This document shows, in pieces, positions 184 to 9,390 of a DNA stretch of 14,242 nucleotides (within the stretch, counting starts at the first letter, position 1; each line of letters starts with the position of its first letter). The notes below the pieces were generated by a model that did no database searches, had not been told where the DNA came from, and was given only the letters and a program-made list of their open reading frames with translations. This DNA is from an uncultured archaeon (GTDB lineage: Archaea; Asgardarchaeota; Thorarchaeia; Thorarchaeales; Thorarchaeaceae). The stretch spans positions 1-14,242 of the forward strand of contig CAZVZC010000014.1 in assembly GCA_964631415.1 (NCBI GenBank). Direction: 5' to 3'. A program made the translations under genes and the position numbers.

Positions 184-1389
184 TCATTCCTCGAAGTCAG
201 GTGGGGTCATAGATGCCCACACCGGGACCTTCTCCATTGCTGGGTCGTAGCCGTCCAAGACATGACGACCCAGTATGAGCCGCTGTATTTCGCTGGTACC
301 TTCATATATCTGGTAGAGCTTGGCATCGCGAAACAGCTTCTCCAACGGGTACTGGTCGATGTAGCCGTAACCTCCATGAATCTGCAGCGCCTCGCTGGCA
401 ATCCACATCGCTGCGTCTGTGGCGTAGGCCTTGGCCACACTCGCGGCAATGGTGGACTCGGCACCCGTGTCCGCTTGCCATGCGGCCTTGAGGTAGAGCA
501 TCCTTGACGCCTCAATCTTCATGTACATTTCAGCCAGCTTGAACTGAATCACCTCGAACTTGCGTAGCTTCTCCCCAAATGCCTCTCTCTTGTTGACGTA
601 TTCGCGTGCATACTCCATGGCTGCCCTCGCGAGACCTGTTGAAAAGGCTGCGATTGCAGGCCGTGTCATAGCGAATGTGGCCATTGCAGTAAGGAACCCC
701 GTTCCCTCAGACCCCAATAGGTTCTCTGCAGGGACTTTCGCTTCCTTGAACATGACAGACGAGGTCACAGAAGCACGATGGCCCATTTTCTCAACAGGCC
801 GACCCGTCTTCACGCCCGGTGTGTCGGCATCAACAATGAGCGCACACAGAGACTTGTGTCGCTGGCTTGGGTCAAGACTAGCAAAGACAGTGAAGGTGTC
901 GGCATATGGTGCATTTGTTATCCAGAACTTGGTGCCATTGAGGACGTAGTGATCACCCTCCTTTCTGACCTTAGTCTGGATACCGGCTACATCGCTCCCC
1001 ATCCCAGGTTCCGAACATGCGAAGCTGATGAACTTCAGGTCTTTTGTGAGCGGCCTGAGATACTTCTCTTTCTGTTCATCCGTACCTGCTACAAGTATCG
1101 GTTCTGCACCTAGGGAATTCACGTAGATACTCGTGGTCATGCCTGCGCATCCAGCGGCCATCTCCTCGACGACTAGGCACATGTCGATGACTCCTCGGCC
1201 AAGACCCCCATACTCCTTCGGTATGCCCAAGTTCATGAGACCATCTTGCCAACACTTCTTGATTACTGGCAGTGGAAACTCGCCGGTCTTGTCGTAATAG
1301 TGGGCATAGGGGATCATGTACCCTTGAGCAAACTCTCTCGCCTTCTTCTGCAGCGCGATTTGTTCATTGGTGAGCGTGAAGTCTATCAT
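184..1389 (-). CDS. acd: Acyl-CoA dehydrogenase (short/medium-chain type)
   Basis: Motifs FACSEPGMGSD, LNGTKFWITN, KMGHRAS, REAFG, QIHGGYGY and catalytic-Glu-containing IYEGTSEIQR. Start set to ATG 1389 (MIDFTLTNEQ, a typical ACAD N-terminus) behind GAGGGAG rather than the track start at 1446. Confidence 0.95.
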   Translation of the reverse strand: MIDFTLTNEQIALQKKAREFAQGYMIPYAHYYDKTGEFPLPVIKKCWQDGLMNLGIPKEYGGLGRGVIDMCLVVEEMAAGCAGMTTSIYVNSLGAEPILVAGTDEQKEKYLRPLTKDLKFISFACSEPGMGSDVAGIQTKVRKEGDHYVLNGTKFWITNAPYADTFTVFASLDPSQRHKSLCALIVDADTPGVKTGRPVEKMGHRASVTSSVMFKEAKVPAENLLGSEGTGFLTAMATFAMTRPAIAAFSTGLARAAMEYAREYVNKREAFGEKLRKFEVIQFKLAEMYMKIEASRMLYLKAAWQADTGAESTIAASVAKAYATDAAMWIASEALQIHGGYGYIDQYPLEKLFRDAKLYQIYEGTSEIQRLILGRHVLDGYDPAMEKVPVWASMTPPDFEE

Positions 1390-1435
1390 GTCTGCTCCCT
1401 CAGCTACTGTACTTGTTGTTGAACTGGCTTTGGAG

Positions 1436-1449
1436 GTATAAGTCACTTA
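1436..1449 (-). promoter_or_regulatory. Putative TATA-like element (CTTATA on minus strand) overlapped by palindrome TAAGT-C-ACTTA, upstream of the acyl-CoA dehydrogenase
   Basis: Plus strand 1439-1449 = taagtcactta (5-1-5 inverted repeat), about 50 nt upstream of ATG 1389 in an 88-nt intergenic gap. Confidence 0.35.
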
Positions 1450-1477
1450 CGAAGTGGCAACGCTCCAAGATGCGGAA

Positions 1478-3742
1478 TCAGGCCTTAGCAGTCATCTGTT
1501 TGACAACCTCGGGCAGGCTCCACTTCAGCTCCAGCTCAAGTGCGCCGCTTTCGGGGCCCGGACAGCGTCTGACACAGGTCCGACAAGCCACACAGAGCCA
1601 GAGATCGACCTCGACCTTGCCAAAGCCTGGAGCATCCCTCTTCAGTGGGACACTTGTTGTTGGTCGTACAGCTGCCAGACTACGGATTGTCTTGTAGAAC
1701 AGGGCCTTGTTGACTGGAAGCTTCTGAAGCGCCTCCTCAGGGAAGTCAAAGTAGCTGGGAACATCAACATTGGACTTCAACTCGATTGCGTGTTCAGGAC
1801 ATGCAATCTGGCACGACTTGCATCCAAGGCACCTTGAGGGTTCCCAGTCTATTGTGCCGAACCCTAGAAGCGGGGCGTATCCCATCATGTCACGGTACTC
1901 ATCCAGTACCGACGGCACATCTATTTCCATCAAGTCGTCTATAGTGACCTTGGGTTTTGCACTGGGAATCTTGGCACGAGCTCGATAGGCCAGAAGAACG
2001 GCAGACTTGATCTTCTCTTCAACACCCTTGAGTACCGGCTCAGCAATGACTTGGCCGGCGACTCTGATCTTCAGCATCTTGTCACACGACTTCGAGAAGG
2101 CGTCCAGAGAGCCTACAAGTCGTCCTATGTCCTGAGCTTTGAAATCGCTCAGTATGCTATTGATCTCAGCCTTTGCAGCCGAGAGCTGAGGAGCCAAGCT
2201 GCTGACGGTTCTGATTGTGATCTCAGCCTCGTTAGGAGTTCGAGGCACGTCATACAAGACATAGCCATGAGACTCGCCCACTGCTGTAAGCAGTCCGTCA
2301 CTTTTCAATCTCAGCAGATGCTGAAACACACGGTTCTGGGGGATGTGTGTTCTCTCGGCTAAATCATGGGCAGTCATGGCTCCGATATCACGGATAAGAA
2401 CCAGTATCATGCCGCGCTCAAGTTCATTGTCGAGATATGTGGCAACCATCCTATCATAGGTTTCAGGGTTCAGCTTCTCACCGTACACGTTCGCTTCAGA
2501 AACTAGCTTAGGCCCCTTTTCCAGAGCTATCTTGAGTCTGAACCTTGTGAAGGCTTCGAGGCCTGCAGATACGAGTAGACGGAGATCGTCTGAGCTCCCT
2601 GTGCCCTGTGACTGCAGCACCCCCACTGTCATTGAATCCACAGTCTTCCTGAGCGTGTCCACATGATCTGAGAGCTTGGTTTCGTCGTACTCACCAAGCA
2701 ACTGTAGCTTCTCCAGTATAGGCCCAAGCTTATCCAAGGAGGCCTTGGCAGAGTCCTGTGTGCTGCCCTTCAGTGATCTGACGACTCCACGGAACTGCTG
2801 AATGACTCGCTTCAATACAAGCGTCGTCGGGGGAGTGGCTGCAAGCACGCGAGCGAAGACCGGAGAGTCACCTTCCAGACCGGCCATCTCAATCTCACCC
2901 CTCTGAATCATAGATATGATTGCTGACTGCACTGTCTCTGGGGAAACCCTCATCAGAGTAGCCAGCTGCACTGCTGTCTTCGACCCCATGCTGTTCAGAA
3001 TGAATAGGATTATGCCGCGATGTAGTTCTGTCAGGGCGTTCACTGATACCAGCTGTAACACACGAGAGTCCTCAATCCGGCCCTCTCTTCGCCCACGCTT
3101 GATTTGGGCCGAGGCACGTAGGAAGGGACCATACCTTGTCTTTGCGCCAAGCTTCTGCAGTGCATCAAGGGTCGTGTCTGGGCTCGATTCAATACTGGAA
3201 GTCGCCTGTGAGAGGGACTCGATGAGTGCATTCAACTCGGCAGTAGCACCGACCGCGTTCGCCTTGGCCTTCTCCTCATACTCCCCGACCACGGACTCCA
3301 TTCTGGCAATCACGTCTGGTATTGATTTCAGAATGCTATCGATGTCTACTACCGAGGCCTGGCGTTGCTCAGCAATGACACGCTTCTTAGCCGCCAATGA
3401 TGATCTCAAGGCATCGAGAAGGCTGAGGAGCCCCTTTGACTCTAAGTTCTCAGCAGCCTTCTCCAAGTTGGCGATAGAATCGACCAAGATGGACTTCTCA
3501 GCTATCTGTGCTAATAGCCCAGTCCGTGTTGCTGTTTCCAAGAAGGCATCGAAGTAAGAACTGGGAAACGCAACGATAGGCTCGATGAGGGGCCCAATCC
3601 CACGTCTAAGGTTCTCGATTTCTACCGCAATTCTGCTGACAGGTACGGCAGACTCCTCCTTGAGCCCACCAAGCGTCAAGACCATGTCCATCATACGACG
3701 CCGTTTTGGCGCCATCTCCTTGACCACTTCAACGGCGCTCAT
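1478..3742 (-). CDS. Uncharacterised Hdr-associated protein (754 aa): helical segments, two (possibly three) winged-helix modules and a C-terminal 2x[4Fe-4S] ferredoxin domain
   Basis: ATG at 3742 overlaps the upstream TGA stop (ATGA). Internal repeat ELHRGIILFILNSMGSKTAVQLA..RGEIEMAG / ELERGMILVLIRDIGAMTAHDLA..DGLLTAVG with 201-aa spacing. Cluster motifs CLGCKSCQIACP and CVACRTCVRRCP. Confidence 0.85.
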   Translation of the reverse strand: MSAVEVVKEMAPKRRRMMDMVLTLGGLKEESAVPVSRIAVEIENLRRGIGPLIEPIVAFPSSYFDAFLETATRTGLLAQIAEKSILVDSIANLEKAAENLESKGLLSLLDALRSSLAAKKRVIAEQRQASVVDIDSILKSIPDVIARMESVVGEYEEKAKANAVGATAELNALIESLSQATSSIESSPDTTLDALQKLGAKTRYGPFLRASAQIKRGRREGRIEDSRVLQLVSVNALTELHRGIILFILNSMGSKTAVQLATLMRVSPETVQSAIISMIQRGEIEMAGLEGDSPVFARVLAATPPTTLVLKRVIQQFRGVVRSLKGSTQDSAKASLDKLGPILEKLQLLGEYDETKLSDHVDTLRKTVDSMTVGVLQSQGTGSSDDLRLLVSAGLEAFTRFRLKIALEKGPKLVSEANVYGEKLNPETYDRMVATYLDNELERGMILVLIRDIGAMTAHDLAERTHIPQNRVFQHLLRLKSDGLLTAVGESHGYVLYDVPRTPNEAEITIRTVSSLAPQLSAAKAEINSILSDFKAQDIGRLVGSLDAFSKSCDKMLKIRVAGQVIAEPVLKGVEEKIKSAVLLAYRARAKIPSAKPKVTIDDLMEIDVPSVLDEYRDMMGYAPLLGFGTIDWEPSRCLGCKSCQIACPEHAIELKSNVDVPSYFDFPEEALQKLPVNKALFYKTIRSLAAVRPTTSVPLKRDAPGFGKVEVDLWLCVACRTCVRRCPGPESGALELELKWSLPEVVKQMTAKA

Positions 3743-5904
3743 GGACGCACCTCCGCCCACTTGCCAGCTGTCCCGAGATGAACAGGAGTCGGACCAAGCT
3801 CCTTAGCACGCCGGACCATCTCCCCCACGGCGTTAGTGAACCTCTCGGGCTCAGCACTGAACATCCTGAACATCTCCACACGCTCGCCCTGCCACCCAAT
3901 GGCGTTGAGTATCTCGCGAGCAACATCAACCTGTATCTGCGCGATCTCGTTGCCAGTACCACCCATGTGACAACGATCTGTTTCACAAGACGCAATCATT
4001 ACCGTGCTCGCTCCGTGTTCGAATGCCTTCAGGATGTCGATGATTGAGACTCTGCCAGCGCAGGGGACAGGAATCAGACGAGTGCTTGGAGAATACTCCA
4101 TCCTCCTTGTCCCGACTATGTCAATCGTGGAAACAGAACACTCCTCACAGTAGAAACAGACGGTTATCGGATACTCAGGTCCAGCGCCCTCCAAGTTGGC
4201 CTCTATCTCGGACCACAGCTGCTCGTTGGACAGGAAGTTCAGCTGTGTAGCGGCGGATGGACAGAGACTCTGACAGACGCCGCAGGCATGGCAGTTCAGC
4301 GTGTCAATCTTGGCTTTGAAGAGTATCTTCTGGTCTTCGCTCTGTGTTTCTGCCTCCGTTTGCTCGACCATCAGCGGAACACCACGGGGGCATTGCTGCG
4401 CACAGAGACTGCAGCCCACACAATCGTCTACGTTCAACACTGCGCCACGCGCAAGCAGCTCGATCTTCCCGTTGTTGAGTTCATTGTGAAGTATCAAAGC
4501 ACCCGCCTGTGCATCGGTCACTGCCTCATAGACAAACTGAGGATGAGCCACTGCACCTACAGCTACTACTCCCCTTCTTCGGGTTTCAACACGTCTGAGC
4601 TTGCCATATAGCTCCTTCACGTGCCCATCGTACTCCAAGGCATAGCCAAGGGTCTGAGAGAGCTCTGGAAGGCCGTCTGGAGGAAGAACCGCAGCGGATA
4701 GGACGAGCAGGTCAGGGTTTGTTTCGAAGTACCGGTCTAGTAGCGAGTCATAGATTCTCACACCGGTCTTCCCGTTCTTCTCCCATACCATGCTGACCCG
4801 GCCCCGGATGTAGTCAACACCCTTCTCGCGGGACTCCTTGTAGACCAGCTCGTTCTCGAAAGGTACCCTGATGTCCATGTAGACGATGCGTACTCTTGCA
4901 TCAGGGACCCTCTTCAGAAGCTCCAAGGAGTTATCGATAGCGAACGTGCAGCAGAGTTTGCTGCAGTCACGTTTGTGATCCTCTGACCTACTACCCACAC
5001 ACTGGACCATGACCACCTCTCTGACCGGTCCACCATCAGAGGGACGCGAAACTTGACCATCTGTCAGCATGCATGACAGCTCGAACTGCGTTATCACATC
5101 CGGATTCTTGCCATACCTATACTCTGGCATCGTCGTGGGCTTGAACTCTTGGAAGCCCATCGCTAGCACGACTCCTGATGTCTTGAACTTCCTCTCTTCT
5201 CCACCAGCTTGGGTATAATGTACTGTGAAGTCGCCCATCTCGCCCTCGACGAACTTCACGCGTGTGTCAATCATCACTGCGATTCTCTTATCCTTCTTCA
5301 CAGCGTCGAGCCTGCCACTGAGAACCTCTCGACCAGACTTTCCGGTGGGGGCAACAGCCGGGAGCTTGATGACATGTCCACCTAGACTCTTTTCCAGCTC
5401 TATCAATGAGACTTCATACCCCAGCTTGGAGAGGGATAGTGCGGACTCAATCCCTGCGACTCCGCCTCCAATGACTGTCACATGGTTCCCGACTTCCTTT
5501 CGTTGGACTTGGAGCGGTTTTGAAAGAGAAGAACGGAACAATGCCCCACGTATCATGTCATTGCTCTTTCGACTCGCTTCGTCAGAGTCTTTGTGTACCC
5601 AAGCACAATGCTCGCGGATGTTTACGTACTGTATCTGTGTAGGGTCCTTTCCTCTTGACTTCAGGTAGTGGTCGATCCGAGGCCCTATCTTCTGGCTTGT
5701 GCAGGCAGCGATGACGAGCCTGCCACCATACCTGTCCATCATCTTCTCTATCTGGGCTAGGCCATCTTCTTGACAGACTAGATCGTGGACTGTCACCGCA
5801 GCGGCCAGCTCGTTCCCAGCGATGCTGTTCTTCAGGAAATCAAAGTCAAGACCGAGCGTCTTGCCACAGGTGCACAGAAGAACTGCAGACTTGTCATGGT
5901 TCAC
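3739..5904 (-). CDS. hdrA: Heterodisulfide reductase subunit A-like flavoprotein fused to a C-terminal MvhD [2Fe-2S] domain (HdrA''-MvhD)
   Basis: N-terminal CTCG..C..ACT..NIREHCAWVH domain; FAD motif GGGVAG; QCVGSR..CSKLCC; two CxxCxxCxxxCP motifs; MvhD motifs FYCEEC, VPCAGR, CETDRCH, ELGPTP. GTG start 6 nt after GGTGA. Confidence 0.93.
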   Translation of the reverse strand: MNHDKSAVLLCTCGKTLGLDFDFLKNSIAGNELAAAVTVHDLVCQEDGLAQIEKMMDRYGGRLVIAACTSQKIGPRIDHYLKSRGKDPTQIQYVNIREHCAWVHKDSDEASRKSNDMIRGALFRSSLSKPLQVQRKEVGNHVTVIGGGVAGIESALSLSKLGYEVSLIELEKSLGGHVIKLPAVAPTGKSGREVLSGRLDAVKKDKRIAVMIDTRVKFVEGEMGDFTVHYTQAGGEERKFKTSGVVLAMGFQEFKPTTMPEYRYGKNPDVITQFELSCMLTDGQVSRPSDGGPVREVVMVQCVGSRSEDHKRDCSKLCCTFAIDNSLELLKRVPDARVRIVYMDIRVPFENELVYKESREKGVDYIRGRVSMVWEKNGKTGVRIYDSLLDRYFETNPDLLVLSAAVLPPDGLPELSQTLGYALEYDGHVKELYGKLRRVETRRRGVVAVGAVAHPQFVYEAVTDAQAGALILHNELNNGKIELLARGAVLNVDDCVGCSLCAQQCPRGVPLMVEQTEAETQSEDQKILFKAKIDTLNCHACGVCQSLCPSAATQLNFLSNEQLWSEIEANLEGAGPEYPITVCFYCEECSVSTIDIVGTRRMEYSPSTRLIPVPCAGRVSIIDILKAFEHGASTVMIASCETDRCHMGGTGNEIAQIQVDVAREILNAIGWQGERVEMFRMFSAEPERFTNAVGEMVRRAKELGPTPVHLGTAGKWAEVRP

Positions 5905-5910
5905 CAGCCA

Positions 5911-7173
5911 TCACCGCCTGCTCTGAAGTATCTTCGACACCACGGCTCTTGCCTGGGTCACACTCTCAGGAACCTCCGCAGGACCAGCTGCTGCCCCACA
6001 CACATAGACATGGTTTCCAGCCACCACTTCGTTCTCGGACACAGGGTCTGCGGCGGCCACAAAACCATATGTAGACCCAAGTCCGAGCGACTTCATGATG
6101 TGTGACGCATCCTGTGGGGGTTCTAGTGCAGACGATAGTACGAGCAGGTCTACAGAGAATCGGAGATATTTGTCTAGAAGTGAATCATAGACTGTCACGT
6201 TGACAGCCCCATCCTTGCGCGGCTCGACTCGCGTCACTCGTCCTCGTATGAACTCGACCCCGGCATCCCTTGACACACGGTAGTAGCGTTCGTGTCTATC
6301 ATAGGTTCGGATGTCCATGTAGACGACCGAGACACGCGAATCCTGCCTTTCGGTCGCTATGATGTTTGCATGTTTCAGTGCGAAAACGCAACAGATCTTG
6401 GAGCAATAGGGGTGATGCTCCTCGTCCCTGCTACCCACGCACTGGACCATCATCACCTGCTTCACTCCGACACCGTCCGAGGGGCGCAATAGCACTCCAC
6501 CGGACTTGCCGTTCGGATCGAGCATCTGAGCAAGCTCCAGCTGTGTGATGACACTAGGAATCCGACCATAGCCGTACTCTTGCATGTCAATTGGCTTCAT
6601 CTCATGATAGCCAGTAGCGACTACGATGTCTGATACCCCGACAGTCTCCTCGCTGGGCTGCGCATCGAGCTTGATGGCCTTGGTCGGACAGTCTTCCTCA
6701 GCCTTTCTTGTACCTTCATCAGCCATTGAGGGATCATAGGTCACCGCCTGTGGCTGACATTGTGGAGAAAGCAAGTGAAACGCTCTTGAGCGCTCTGTAC
6801 AGAGCCCGCACAGGGTACACTTACGGGGATCTACATACCTTGGGCCCACTGCAATCTTGACTTTGAAATCCCCAGGACTGCCAGAGATCTCTTTCACTTC
6901 AGTGCCAGTCTTGAGCTCGATATTGGGCTGATCGACCAATGCACTTCTGTAGAAACACTTGCGGATTCCGGGCCGCCAACGATTGCCTTCAAAGCAGTAG
7001 AAACAGTCGTCCGTCGGGAAAGCTTTGTAGAGGTCTAGTGCGTTGCCCCCCACAGACAGGGCACGTTCCACAAGGACACTCTTGATACCTGAGTCAGCTA
7101 GTTCAACGGCCGCAGTCATTCCTGCAACACCGGCACCAATGATCAGGACCGTGTCAGACACGCTTCCGCTCAC
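5911..7173 (-). CDS. hdrA: Short heterodisulfide reductase subunit A-like flavoprotein (HdrA'), lacking the N-terminal and C-terminal Fe-S domains
   Basis: GAGVAG FAD motif; LYKAFPTDDC (HdrA consensus LDKTFPTxDC); reduced inserted ferredoxin CTLCGLC..CP; VATGY; RPSDG; QCVGSR..CSKICC; FIRGRV; DLLVLS. Confidence 0.92.
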   Translation of the reverse strand: MSGSVSDTVLIIGAGVAGMTAAVELADSGIKSVLVERALSVGGNALDLYKAFPTDDCFYCFEGNRWRPGIRKCFYRSALVDQPNIELKTGTEVKEISGSPGDFKVKIAVGPRYVDPRKCTLCGLCTERSRAFHLLSPQCQPQAVTYDPSMADEGTRKAEEDCPTKAIKLDAQPSEETVGVSDIVVATGYHEMKPIDMQEYGYGRIPSVITQLELAQMLDPNGKSGGVLLRPSDGVGVKQVMMVQCVGSRDEEHHPYCSKICCVFALKHANIIATERQDSRVSVVYMDIRTYDRHERYYRVSRDAGVEFIRGRVTRVEPRKDGAVNVTVYDSLLDKYLRFSVDLLVLSSALEPPQDASHIMKSLGLGSTYGFVAAADPVSENEVVAGNHVYVCGAAAGPAEVPESVTQARAVVSKILQSRR

Positions 7174-7174
7174 C

Positions 7175-8041
7175 TCAACCTTTCAGATGACTAAGTATCG
7201 AGTCTGCAGTGACACGGTTCATCCGCAGTCCAACTGCGTCCTCACCGATTCCCAGTGCCAACGCCAGTATCTGAGGATAGAGTAGAACTGGTAGGTCATA
7301 CACCTCTCCATAAGACTCTTTGAGGCCAAGCTGTTGAAGGTCCAGTTGGTTGCCACACGCGGGGCATACAACCGTTGCAAACTCCGCACCGGCCTCTTTC
7401 ATGGATCGTATCTTGTCCCTCGCAAGCCTGATTGCCAGAGGCTCATTGACAGGCAGGATAGTCGCACCACAACACTGCTTCCACAAAGGATACTCGACTA
7501 CCTTTGCGCCGGTTGCCCTCACCAGCTCCTCAAGCATCTCAGGCTTGAACTCAGTCACATCGGCCGGACGAAGAAGGTGACAACCATAGTGAATTGCGAT
7601 TCCGACCCCATCGAGGGGCTTGGTGATTCTGCGGCGTATCTCATCAGGACCTATGTCGGTATAGATAGCCTCCACGAAGTGGCGGACCTTGACTGTTCCC
7701 TTGAACTCAAGGTCGTACCTTTTCAGCTCCTTGTTCACGCGAGCCCTGTCTTCTGAGTCGTGTTTCAGGTGATGCTGAACGTCTTTCAAGGAGCCAAAGC
7801 ATCCATTGCAGGGCGTCAATATGTCATGACCATTCTTCTCAGCGATAGCAAGGGTGCGGCCGTTGACAACCAGCCAGCCGAAGTAGTCAATCGCCCTTAG
7901 GTTTGGACTCCCACAACATGCCACATCAGGCATGTACTCGAACTCCATACCCAATGCCTCAGCCACCTTCATCATGGCAGCTTCGTAGTTAGGATAGTTC
8001 GCAGGAACGCTGCAGCCCATGTAAAGATTGTAGACAGGCAC
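7175..8041 (-). CDS. hdrB: Heterodisulfide reductase subunit B (two CCG domains)
   Basis: YMGC..CCG..TPCNGC and HYGCH..CCG..VCPAC..QLD, ending PVLLYPQILALALG. Start chosen at GTG 8041 (5 nt after GGTGA); GTG at 8050 or 8053 are alternatives. Confidence 0.95.
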   Translation of the reverse strand: MPVYNLYMGCSVPANYPNYEAAMMKVAEALGMEFEYMPDVACCGSPNLRAIDYFGWLVVNGRTLAIAEKNGHDILTPCNGCFGSLKDVQHHLKHDSEDRARVNKELKRYDLEFKGTVKVRHFVEAIYTDIGPDEIRRRITKPLDGVGIAIHYGCHLLRPADVTEFKPEMLEELVRATGAKVVEYPLWKQCCGATILPVNEPLAIRLARDKIRSMKEAGAEFATVVCPACGNQLDLQQLGLKESYGEVYDLPVLLYPQILALALGIGEDAVGLRMNRVTADSILSHLKG

Positions 8042-8042
8042 C

Positions 8043-8585
8043 CTATTCACCACCCTTGACGAGCCTGCCAGTCCGGGTTTCTTTCAGGATTGCCTTTATG
8101 CCCTCAGTTGACAACCCAGGCACTGCCGCTTCTAATCCTAAGTCCTCACGTTCCCAGTCTGAGGTCACAACATAGAGCTGTCCCTTGTCAATCAACTCCT
8201 TCGCGATTGCAAGGACCTTCTCTGGCACCTTACCCGATTCAGCCGCCAAGTTCTTGCAGTCAAAGAAGATGTCTGTGATACGCACCTTCTGCGGGCAGCG
8301 TTCTTGGCACTGAAAACACGTCAGGCATTCCCATATCTCCTTGCCCGACAGGACCTCTTCACGCATTCCTAAGAGAATCATCCGAATCAGTTGGTGAGGC
8401 TTGTACTTCCACTGGTTGGCAATCGGACATGCTGCTGTACAGGTGGAGCAAGCAAAACAAGCGGATAGCTCCTCTCCGTCAGGCATGCTCTTAATGTCGT
8501 CCTTGAACTTCGCATCGAGCAACGACATGTCGATTGGATCAACTAGGGTCATCGGTTTGCCAGAGGTCTGCTTTGATTCTGCCAT
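8043..8585 (-). CDS. hdrC: Heterodisulfide reductase subunit C
   Basis: CFACSTCTAACP and IWECLTCFQCQERCP, with PHQLIRMILLG between them; directly upstream of hdrB; GGTGA Shine-Dalgarno-like motif 6 nt before ATG. Confidence 0.95.
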   Translation of the reverse strand: MAESKQTSGKPMTLVDPIDMSLLDAKFKDDIKSMPDGEELSACFACSTCTAACPIANQWKYKPHQLIRMILLGMREEVLSGKEIWECLTCFQCQERCPQKVRITDIFFDCKNLAAESGKVPEKVLAIAKELIDKGQLYVVTSDWEREDLGLEAAVPGLSTEGIKAILKETRTGRLVKGGE

Positions 8586-8741: not shown

Positions 8742-8875
8742 GGCAATGAATGTCAGGGAAAGGCCTGTAGGTTATAGAAAGGCGGGGTGCGTAACACCGG
8801 CCTACAGGCTAGACAGTCTTGGACGCTCTTCATCATGGACTGCTATGTCCAACACTGTCCAACTGGCAATGAATG
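8742..8875. repeat. Two adjacent inverted repeats bracketed by an 11-bp direct repeat
   Basis: GGCAATGAATG at 8742-8752 and 8865-8875; GCCTGTAGG (8763-8771) / CCTACAGGC (8801-8809); GACAGT-C-TTGGAC (8812-8824) / GTCCAA-C-ACTGTC (8847-8859). Confidence 0.75.
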
Positions 8876-8876
8876 G

Positions 8877-9065
8877 TTATTCTGTGAAGCCCCTCTTGTA
8901 TGTCAAGAATAGGATTAGGAGCATACCTACAATCATGGACAACTCGTAGGCGAATATGACAGGGAAGCTCTGCGTGTTAAAGGGGGAAACAATGCTGCCC
9001 AGTAGCGAGAAATCCACGCACAATCCCGCGCCAAGAAGCACAATCCATGGTCGTTTCTGCGGCAT
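8877..9065 (-). CDS. Small hypothetical membrane protein (62 aa, two predicted TM helices)
   Basis: Two hydrophobic stretches (WIVLLGAGLCVDFSLLGSIV; IFAYELSMIVGMLLILFLTY) with basic residues at both termini; co-oriented, 25 nt after the preceding gene. Confidence 0.6.
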   Translation of the reverse strand: MPQKRPWIVLLGAGLCVDFSLLGSIVSPFNTQSFPVIFAYELSMIVGMLLILFLTYKRGFTE

Positions 9066-9090: not shown

Positions 9091-9390
9091 TTATGGGTTT
9101 CGTGCAGACTCGATGATTGAAGCCAGACTGGACTTCATGGTGTCACAGATGTCAAGACTGCCCTGCCGCAGCTGGGACGCAAGGCGGATTACGTAGCCTT
9201 TCAGTTGTTCCGGGTCAGCCTGCATACGTCCAATTGGAGGATTCTTTCCTTCGGATAGAAGCCGTAAGACGCCGGTGAGAGCGACCTGGAACTTGTCATG
9301 CATTTGCTCGATCTCTTCACGAGCAAGAGCAATGCGAGCCGACAGACTGATGATCTGCTCAATCAGGTTGTCGTTTTCCATCTCAGTCAT
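9091..9390 (-). CDS. Hypothetical alpha-helical protein (99 aa)
   Basis: ATG overlaps the end of the GINS gene by 8 nt; amphipathic helical pattern; no family motif recognised. Confidence 0.75.
   Translation of the reverse strand: MTEMENDNLIEQIISLSARIALAREEIEQMHDKFQVALTGVLRLLSEGKNPPIGRMQADPEQLKGYVIRLASQLRQGSLDICDTMKSSLASIIESARNP

Follow-up and report, generated by a model that had tools for sequence, protein, structure and literature searches.

How might a heterodisulfide reductase (Hdr) be wired if its operon contains no donor module, and what is the role of the large iron-sulfur protein encoded directly behind its subunits? This question is raised by six co-oriented minus-strand genes (184-8585) on contig CAZVZC010000014.1 of an uncultured archaeon of the Thorarchaeaceae (assembly GCA_964631415.1); the window, i.e., the whole stretch of DNA that was analysed, is one entire 14,242-bp contig of a 2.16-Mb, 85%-complete metagenome-assembled genome (MAG). 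The genes encode HdrC, HdrB, two HdrA paralogues designated HdrA' and HdrA'', the latter fused to MvhD, a protein of 754 amino acids (aa) designated X, and an acyl-CoA dehydrogenase (ACAD). An earlier sequence-only reading of the window had described a tightly coupled five-gene hdr block followed by a co-oriented ACAD gene, which agrees with the coordinates and with the Pfam and NCBIfam domains, and had noted the lack of a donor module in the operon; in line with this, no hydrogenase, formate dehydrogenase, Flx or Etf genes were found within the window. We consider it reasonably probable that the block encodes an Hdr-type enzyme with an asymmetric HdrA core, to which X contributes a ferredoxin/scaffold subunit at the MvhD port. 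The most likely function of X is that of a structural subunit through which electrons enter or leave the enzyme, and not that of a regulator.

The disulfide-reducing end of the enzyme is encoded by hdrC (8043..8585, 180 aa) and hdrB (7175..8041, or from a GTG at 8053; 288-292 aa). HdrC matches Fer4_8 (E 2.7e-12), is 72-77% identical to its relatives within the family and contains two complete CxxCxxCxxxCP motifs (Cys 43, 46, 49, 53 and 87, 90, 93, 97) for two [4Fe-4S] clusters, while its match to the NCBIfam qmoC model (E 2e-14) is confined to positions 2-104 of 360. HdrB matches the CCG family over two stretches (E 3.2e-31) and has exactly ten cysteines (positions 14, 46, 47, 82, 85, 158, 194, 195, 230 and 233), which form two CX31-35CCX34CXXC (CCG) motifs for two non-cubane clusters. 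With all ten cysteines present in HdrB and both motifs complete in HdrC, the disulfide-reducing site and the wire leading to it look intact as judged from these motifs.

The flavin-containing core is divided between hdrA' (5911..7173, or from 7161; 416-420 aa) and hdrA''-mvhD (3739..5904, 721 aa), whose products match solved HdrA structures with E values of 1e-70 to 1e-81. HdrA' aligns with residues 138-555 of 8rvv_A and 142-560 of 5odc_A and consists of a flavin adenine dinucleotide (FAD)/thioredoxin-reductase-like domain with an inserted ferredoxin, which has the cysteine set of one cluster only. It has neither the N-terminal domain nor the C-terminal ferredoxin and retains the DCxxC motif (DCFYC, Cys57/Cys60) that corresponds to Cys194/Cys197 of M. 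wolfeii HdrA. HdrA'' is composed of an N-terminal Cys domain, an FAD domain, a C-terminal 2x[4Fe-4S] ferredoxin (residues 489-555) and an MvhD domain (residues 582-704; FlpD/MvhD match, E 2.6e-32); it has no inserted ferredoxin and no cysteines at the positions aligned to Cys194/Cys197. For the N-terminal domain, the inserted ferredoxin and the Cys194/197 motif alike, what one of the two proteins lacks is present in the other, i.e., the domains of a single four-domain homodimeric HdrA are distributed over two paralogues. The tandem HdrA proteins of anaerobic methanotrophic (ANME) archaea, of which one has Cys197 and no N-terminal domain, were read as complementary heterodimers (Chadwick et al., 2022, PMC9012536), and here the N-terminal domain and the Cys197 ligand are likewise split over adjacent genes. 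By analogy, HdrA' and HdrA'' would form a heterodimer, a complementary logic that was missing from the sequence-only reading. Among the 120 matches listed in a homologue search with HdrA' only Thorarchaeota orthologues were present; multiple and fused HdrA genes were reported before in Thor- and Lokiarchaeota (PMC11237513).

The gene for X (1478..3742) overlaps with its ATG the TGA of hdrA'' in an ATGA, by which the two genes are translationally coupled, and gaps of 1-13 nucleotides (nt), depending on the start codons chosen, separate the hdr genes. Starting from the N-terminus, X comprises a helical domain, a pair of winged-helix modules (~235-300 and ~437-501) and, at its C-terminus (~620-754), an internally duplicated 'GFG...CxxCxxCxxxC' 2x[4Fe-4S] ferredoxin. 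Its profile matches are generic Fer4 and weak MarR/ArsR-like winged helix-turn-helix families at sub- or near-threshold Pfam scores. An AlphaFold model with a mean predicted local distance difference test (pLDDT) value of 77.7 consists of long helices, the two winged helices and a di-cluster ferredoxin with an insert of ~60 residues. Of the folds of X, a wide VIA-align search confirmed only those of the two winged helices and of the ferredoxin, the long helical parts being barely covered, and a Protein Atlas feature search with residues 7-620 returned only generic winged-helix clusters with scores of at most 0.76, which is below the useful range. In a Foldseek search with the whole model the top match was RPC62/RPC3 of RNA polymerase III (E 1.5e-4); with a TM score of ~0.1 and a root mean square deviation (rmsd) above 30 Å this likeness comes down to the shared tandem winged-helix arrangement and was dismissed.

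All occurrences of X that were found lie in Asgard archaea. Among the 1.84 billion representatives of a library there are one Thorarchaeota cluster of X and full-length homologues with 22-27% identity, which, where source names are given, come from Helarchaeota- or Lokiarchaeota-labelled MAGs. A scan of 400 genomes of the phylum recovered full-length X from all genomes of the window's family (85/85) and of three further Asgard families (3/3, 2/2 and 2/2), while elsewhere the matches were limited to the domain level. Among proteins of at least 1331 aa, the length class covered by a further search, no relatives of X were found. In the source databases its relatives are labelled '4Fe-4S dicluster domain-containing protein' or 'ferredoxin/MarR family regulator', and the papers searched contain no description of X or of the variants described below.

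The link between X and Hdr is seen best outside of the window's family. The invariance of the hdr-X-ACAD block in the family is weak evidence, because the whole neighbourhood is syntenic there. In the Helarchaeota- and Lokiarchaeota-labelled MAGs X lies between hdrA''-mvhD and hdrC-hdrB, with flanks unrelated to those in Thorarchaeota, in an array encoding a double HdrA-MvhD, a double HdrA, MvhD, a 93-aa coiled-coil protein, HdrA', HdrA''-MvhD, X, HdrC and HdrB. The earlier point that the 754-aa gene is linked to hdr thus holds in relatives with a different gene order. Moreover, homologues of the ferredoxin domain of X with a length of only ~160 aa adjoin HdrA'/HdrA''-MvhD pairs in genomes with the source names Odin, Heimdall/Hod and Baldr; from this short form the domain can be recognised as a '...P-E-x-I-x-V-P-x-x-L-x-GFG...CxxCxxCxxxC' unit that has been duplicated internally. 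The domain also occurs fused to MvhD, namely in a protein of 312 aa in locus L069 and in 21 clustered proteins with lengths of 266-294 aa, one entry among them being from Bathyarchaeia.

In a side observation on these clusters, a conserved coiled-coil protein of 93-101 aa is encoded just before hdrA' in the Hel/Loki type (L022:6314-6595, L023:6003-6284, L024:6180-6485); a function of these proteins as thiol carriers was ruled out, as they contain no cysteine. Behind the X-containing hdr cluster of the Lokiarchaeota-labelled locus, a methyltransferase gene and a URO-D family gene were seen (L022:14658-15785). The URO-D family includes methylcobamide:CoM methyltransferases.

A direct contact between X and HdrA'' is suggested by structure prediction. 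For HdrA'' 480-721 together with X 421-754 the predicted complex reached a score of 0.89, compared to 0.00 for the best of three controls; this mark was reached by 58/80 solved complexes and 2/110 mismatched pairs, counts that hold only roughly for the author-made alignments used here. Three runs share at least 91% of the contacts, with a pLDDT of 60-63 for the partner. The modelled contacts of X fall into residues 639-730, chiefly 676-707, and those of HdrA'' into residues 620-671 and 707-719 of MvhD and 494-551 of the C-terminal ferredoxin. Within the interface the columns L675, P676, N678, A690, P694, L700 and G706 of X are invariant or nearly so across Thor-, Hel- and Lokiarchaeota. The model supports, but is no proof of, binding of the ferredoxin domain of X to the MvhD domain of HdrA''. 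In a maximum-likelihood tree of MvhD domains all HdrA''-fused sequences form one clade (support 100/99), while the MvhGA-linked, stand-alone and double-HdrA-fused MvhDs fall together in another one. The sequence-only reading would have been undermined by a grouping of the fused MvhD with MvhAG-associated ones; it lies outside of the clade containing the MvhGA-linked MvhD of the same genome.

Natural variants of X give a hint on the function of its remaining part. In eight genomes of the family the slot of X is occupied by a protein of 972-1108 aa. The 972-aa variant corresponds to X 7-211, an NfnB-like Fer4_20/FAD/NADPH module and X 407-760; the module, which matches 4YLF_B (Thermotoga NfnB, E 7e-98) and 5JCA_L (E 9e-90), takes the place of the first winged-helix module of X in these Thorarchaeota. 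This swap argues that X is a donor-side module of the enzyme, the N-terminal part of which may serve as an exchangeable scaffold, and it suggests, by analogy, that the complexes containing the variant could be NAD(P)H-linked Hdr enzymes. An analogue for NAD(P)H-linked Hdr is FlxABCD-HdrABC.

Taken together, the product of the block would be a soluble disulfide reductase of the Hdr type that is flavin-based and has an asymmetric core. In the putative heterodimer HdrA' would supply the Cys197-type ligand and the inserted ferredoxin arm with its one cluster, and HdrA'' the N-terminal cluster domain, the C-terminal ferredoxin and the fused MvhD [2Fe-2S] domain. HdrC would be the wire and HdrB would contribute the two-CCG active site, the thiol/disulfide substrate of which is probably not required by an Mcr reaction in the window's family. 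X would be a stoichiometric subunit, whose C-terminal di-cluster domain docks on the MvhD/C-terminal-ferredoxin face of HdrA'', i.e., at the position of the hydrogenase small subunit MvhG in the methanogen complexes, and would thereby form a third electron port for a medium-potential donor or acceptor. Its helical/winged-helix part of ~600 aa might be a scaffold that recruits or replaces the donor module, as in the variants in which the exchange of the first winged-helix module for NfnB would result in NADPH-linked Hdr enzymes. This scheme builds on the observed domain anatomy, cofactor motifs, conservation, gene linkage and fusions and on the supportive interface model, whereas we infer the formation of the heterodimer, the direction of electron flow, the bifurcation, the donor of the standard form of X and the substrate.

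Several points weigh against this scheme. The curated cut-offs of the NCBIfam equivalogs TIGR03288, TIGR03290, NF041778 and NF040770 are reached by no Hdr protein of the block: HdrC scores 100.8 bits with TIGR03290 (cut-off 160), HdrB 270 bits with TIGR03288 (cut-off 345), and HdrA' and HdrA'' score 309 and 456 bits with HdrA2 (NF040770), the top NCBIfam match of both, which has a cut-off of 1100. The score of the predicted complex is the model's own confidence and derives from author-made alignments, and the predicted template modelling score (pTM) of the X model is 0.39, so the packing of its domains is uncertain. The winged-helix folds of X are genuine, so a role in DNA binding is possible, and the standard form has no cofactor beyond the two predicted clusters. 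Finally, one evolutionary event may account for both the long X and the MvhD clade that accompanies it.

Regarding the substrate, the use of CoM-S-S-CoB would call for an Mcr enzyme, and McrA was absent in 86/86 genomes of the family, which bears out the earlier claim of a dedicated Hdr-like system in a non-methanogen. McrA was present in 4/5 X-bearing genomes tested from outside Thorarchaeota, so this type of complex occurs with and without an Mcr-type enzyme. A thiol/disulfide pair other than CoM/CoB, as proposed in the sequence-only reading, would be plausible. In the 85%-complete genome of the window DsrC was not found, and neither was ComA, for which a Methanosarcina control also gave no match, so that the negative for ComA is weak.

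The alternative that survives best is a coupling of the complex to the ACAD (184..1389, minus strand, 401 aa): electrons from acyl-CoA oxidation might enter via X, or electrons leaving via X might reduce enoyl-CoA, the remaining partners being ferredoxin and the thiol/disulfide pair. It is compatible with the heterodimeric Hdr enzyme carrying X at its MvhD port, and we regard it as rather unlikely. The protein contains all three ACAD domains and is of the medium-chain (MCAD) type, its closest solved structures being 1ukw_A (Thermus ACAD) and mitochondrial MCAD (E 1e-119 to 1e-121). Its gene follows X directly and co-oriented in 30/30 family loci examined, including those with the NfnB variant, it is conserved as well as HdrA'' (78-87% identity), and only three ACAD genes are present in the genome. 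However, synteny in the family extends over the entire region from RpoL to the stand-alone MvhD, which makes adjacency a weak argument, and the X-bearing genomes outside Thorarchaeota encode ACADs of ~50% identity on other contigs, none of them in hdr clusters. The earlier idea that the Hdr complex possibly handles electrons from acyl-CoA oxidation thus finds support in gene position only.

The spacer between X and the ACAD gene points in the same direction. It comprises 88 nt (1390-1477) and contains, next to a GAGGGAG ribosome-binding site, the motif CCACTTCGTAAGTGACTTATACC (1435..1458, minus strand), which has 11 invariant columns in six Thorarchaeota loci within an otherwise diverged spacer. 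A TTATA lies ~50 nt upstream of the ACAD ATG, and the motif may, judged by its letters, be a TATA/BRE promoter of the ACAD gene itself. Because of this conserved TATA-like motif the coupling to acyl-CoA oxidation is possible but unproven. Moreover, MCAD-type enzymes normally pass electrons to electron-transferring flavoprotein (ETF), and the sole EtfB-EtfA pair found is encoded on another contig (C47:3-1526, locus L020), where EtfA begins with a 2x[4Fe-4S] ferredoxin domain and is truncated by the end of the contig. No etfAB genes adjoin the ACAD gene, as they would in a Bcd/EtfAB-type bifurcating complex, or lie near it in the window or in the 30 family loci. With a potential of ~-10 mV the enoyl/acyl-CoA couple is too positive to serve a bifurcating HdrA as medium-potential donor via the MvhD port, to which it is a poor fit. 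An apparent natural fusion of X and ACAD, a 1161-aa open reading frame (ORF) in locus L065 (G378), was discarded, as its junction is a run of 100 N and represents an assembly gap.

It is improbable that X is a redox-sensing transcription factor, whose winged helices would regulate the hdr operon under the control of the Fe-S clusters. Such a function is brought to mind by the MarR/ArsR/TrmB-type Pfam matches at residues 450-500, by the names given to its relatives in the source databases and by the fold itself, since both winged-helix modules superpose on DNA-binding regulators of the MarR/ArsR type with Z scores of 10-12 and an rmsd of 1-3 Å over ~60-85 residues (VIA-align). However, X is encoded in the middle of the operon in the Hel/Loki-type clusters and overlaps hdrA'' in the window, its ferredoxin domain occurs without a winged helix beside HdrA pairs and fused to MvhD, a winged-helix module is exchanged for an NfnB enzyme module in the natural variants, and the predicted interface with MvhD is supportive of a subunit. 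Winged-helix repeats are also common as protein-protein scaffolds; RPC62/RPC3 was the best whole-chain Foldseek match, at the low TM score given above.

The genome contains further redox genes that bear on a possible hydrogen dependence. On contig C16 (93-5175, locus L018) an aldehyde:ferredoxin oxidoreductase gene is followed by mvhD-mvhG-mvhA in a group-3c-like hydrogenase cluster, which was missing from the sequence-only reading, and a 736-aa HdrA is encoded on the same contig (34836-37046). Elsewhere in the genome there are additional hdrCB pairs, a single HdrA gene and two giant double-HdrA genes (C38:14405-17860, locus L019, 1151 aa with a C-terminal MvhD; C21:5862-9167, 1101 aa). In Hel/Loki-type genomes the orthologues of these two genes immediately precede the X-containing cluster, whereas here the genes are scattered. 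A proposed look for mvhAG, etfAB and mcr elsewhere has in this way returned MvhGA on C16 with an MvhD of its own, EtfBA on C47 and no McrA in the family. It is very improbable that the block is an ordinary H2-dependent Mvh-Hdr, with MvhAG docking on the fused MvhD and X being an MvhB-like accessory polyferredoxin, as published Asgard models with their H2-driven HdrABC-MvhADG (PMC11291895) and the presence of MvhG and MvhA (C16:2951-5175) and of a second NiFe hydrogenase would allow, since the hydrogenase on C16 has its own MvhD and other HdrA, HdrB and HdrC sets at its disposal, the fused MvhD lies outside of the MvhGA-linked clade, the modelled contact of X covers the MvhD face and the NfnB variants indicate a donor other than hydrogenase. 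As a further observation on the genome, a 531-aa protein on contig C1 (86094-87689) matches both HdrC and HdrB (TfrB/HdrD-like).

Upstream of the hdr genes GINS, primase, PCNA, TFS, an RNase III-like gene and RpoL are encoded, and on same-species contigs, on which the gene calls are concordant (180/288/416/721/754/398 aa), the ACAD gene is followed by an oppositely oriented DinB gene and no redox partner. No Rfam family was matched within the window. Immediately upstream of the hdr block lies a hydrophobic ORF of 62 aa (8877-9065, minus strand), and loci L005, L009, L010 and L025 have a gene call of 61-63 aa in the corresponding position, and an ORF for a helical protein of 99 aa (9091-9390, minus strand) overlaps the end of the GINS gene. 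The spacer between the 62-aa ORF and hdrC is unusually long with ~290 nt, compared to 92-142 nt in other Thorarchaeota genera (loci L009, L010 and L025), and contains two exact 11-bp direct repeats (GGCAATGAATG) at a distance of 123 nt (8742-8875); the extra length may be an inserted element in the window's genus. Some Thorarchaeota/Sifarchaeia relatives have a tandem PCNA pair (L008:778-2472, L025:687-2334) as opposed to the one PCNA of the window.

As a summary, what stood of the earlier interpretation is a dedicated Hdr-like complex with an extra subunit, whereas the support for the acyl-CoA link did not extend beyond family-level synteny. Metabolic models of Asgard archaea contain a generic H2-driven HdrABC-MvhADG with an 'unidentified heterodisulfide' (PMC11291895), and syntrophy scenarios for the origin of eukaryotes rest on such models. 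An Hdr system that is universal in Thorarchaeota-type genomes would be wired otherwise, with a heterodimeric HdrA core, without hydrogenase and with a lineage-specific subunit at the donor port. The variants with an NADPH module at this port lead to the concrete hypothesis of an NADPH- or X-dependent disulfide/ferredoxin oxidoreductase, and a family so far called '4Fe-4S dicluster domain-containing protein' gains a proposed role. More speculatively, and short of what we would call probable, X might represent a so far unrecognised, Asgard-centred class of input/output modules for HdrA-type bifurcating enzymes, in which a duplicated 'GFG' di-cluster ferredoxin sits on MvhD and a winged-helix scaffold acquired in Thorarchaeota and Helarchaeota-type lineages recruits different donors (NfnB, possibly ACAD/ETF in Thorarchaeota). 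If true, this would provide a thiol-based route tying fatty-acid or amino-acid oxidation to the ferredoxin and NADPH pools.

Compared to known systems, the block resembles MvhADG-HdrABC (5ODC, 8RVU, 7BKB) in the two-CCG site of HdrB, the clusters of HdrC, the FAD domain of HdrA with its proximal cluster and the [2Fe-2S] adaptor MvhD. It differs in that HdrA is present as two complementary paralogues with MvhD fused to one of them, the operon has no hydrogenase, the ferredoxin of X is predicted where the hydrogenase side contacts MvhD, the family has no Mcr and the NCBIfam cut-offs are not reached. The HdrA2B2C2 enzyme of Methanosarcina (NF040770) is alike in that its HdrA is fused to MvhD and that it is the top NCBIfam match of both HdrA proteins, which score below its cut-off; its HdrA2 is a single polypeptide and there is no X-like subunit. 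QmoABC and QmoAB-HdrCB are similar in layout, with a short and a long MvhD-bearing flavoprotein and an HdrC-like Fe-S protein, and the third partner of QmoB is likewise unidentified in sulfate reducers (PMC3333476). With QmoABC the block shares a pair of HdrA paralogues and an MvhD-like domain on the second one, whereas the cytochrome b membrane domain of QmoC and a linkage to aprAB are absent here, with no apr genes within the window, and a full HdrB is present. A parallel in the core is the tandem HdrA of ANME archaea with the same complementary pattern of N-terminal domain and Cys197; the partners in ANME and Moorella are FdhAB-like proteins, NfnB insertions or MetFV, the Moorella HdrABC-MvhD-MetFV having a fused double HdrA, whereas here the partner is the X family, in an Asgard lineage and without Mcr (PMC9012536). 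The variants of X share with bifurcating enzymes a module of the NfnB/GltD type (4YLF_B, 5JCA_L), which the window's own X does not have and which, where present, is inserted into X rather than forming a separate subunit.

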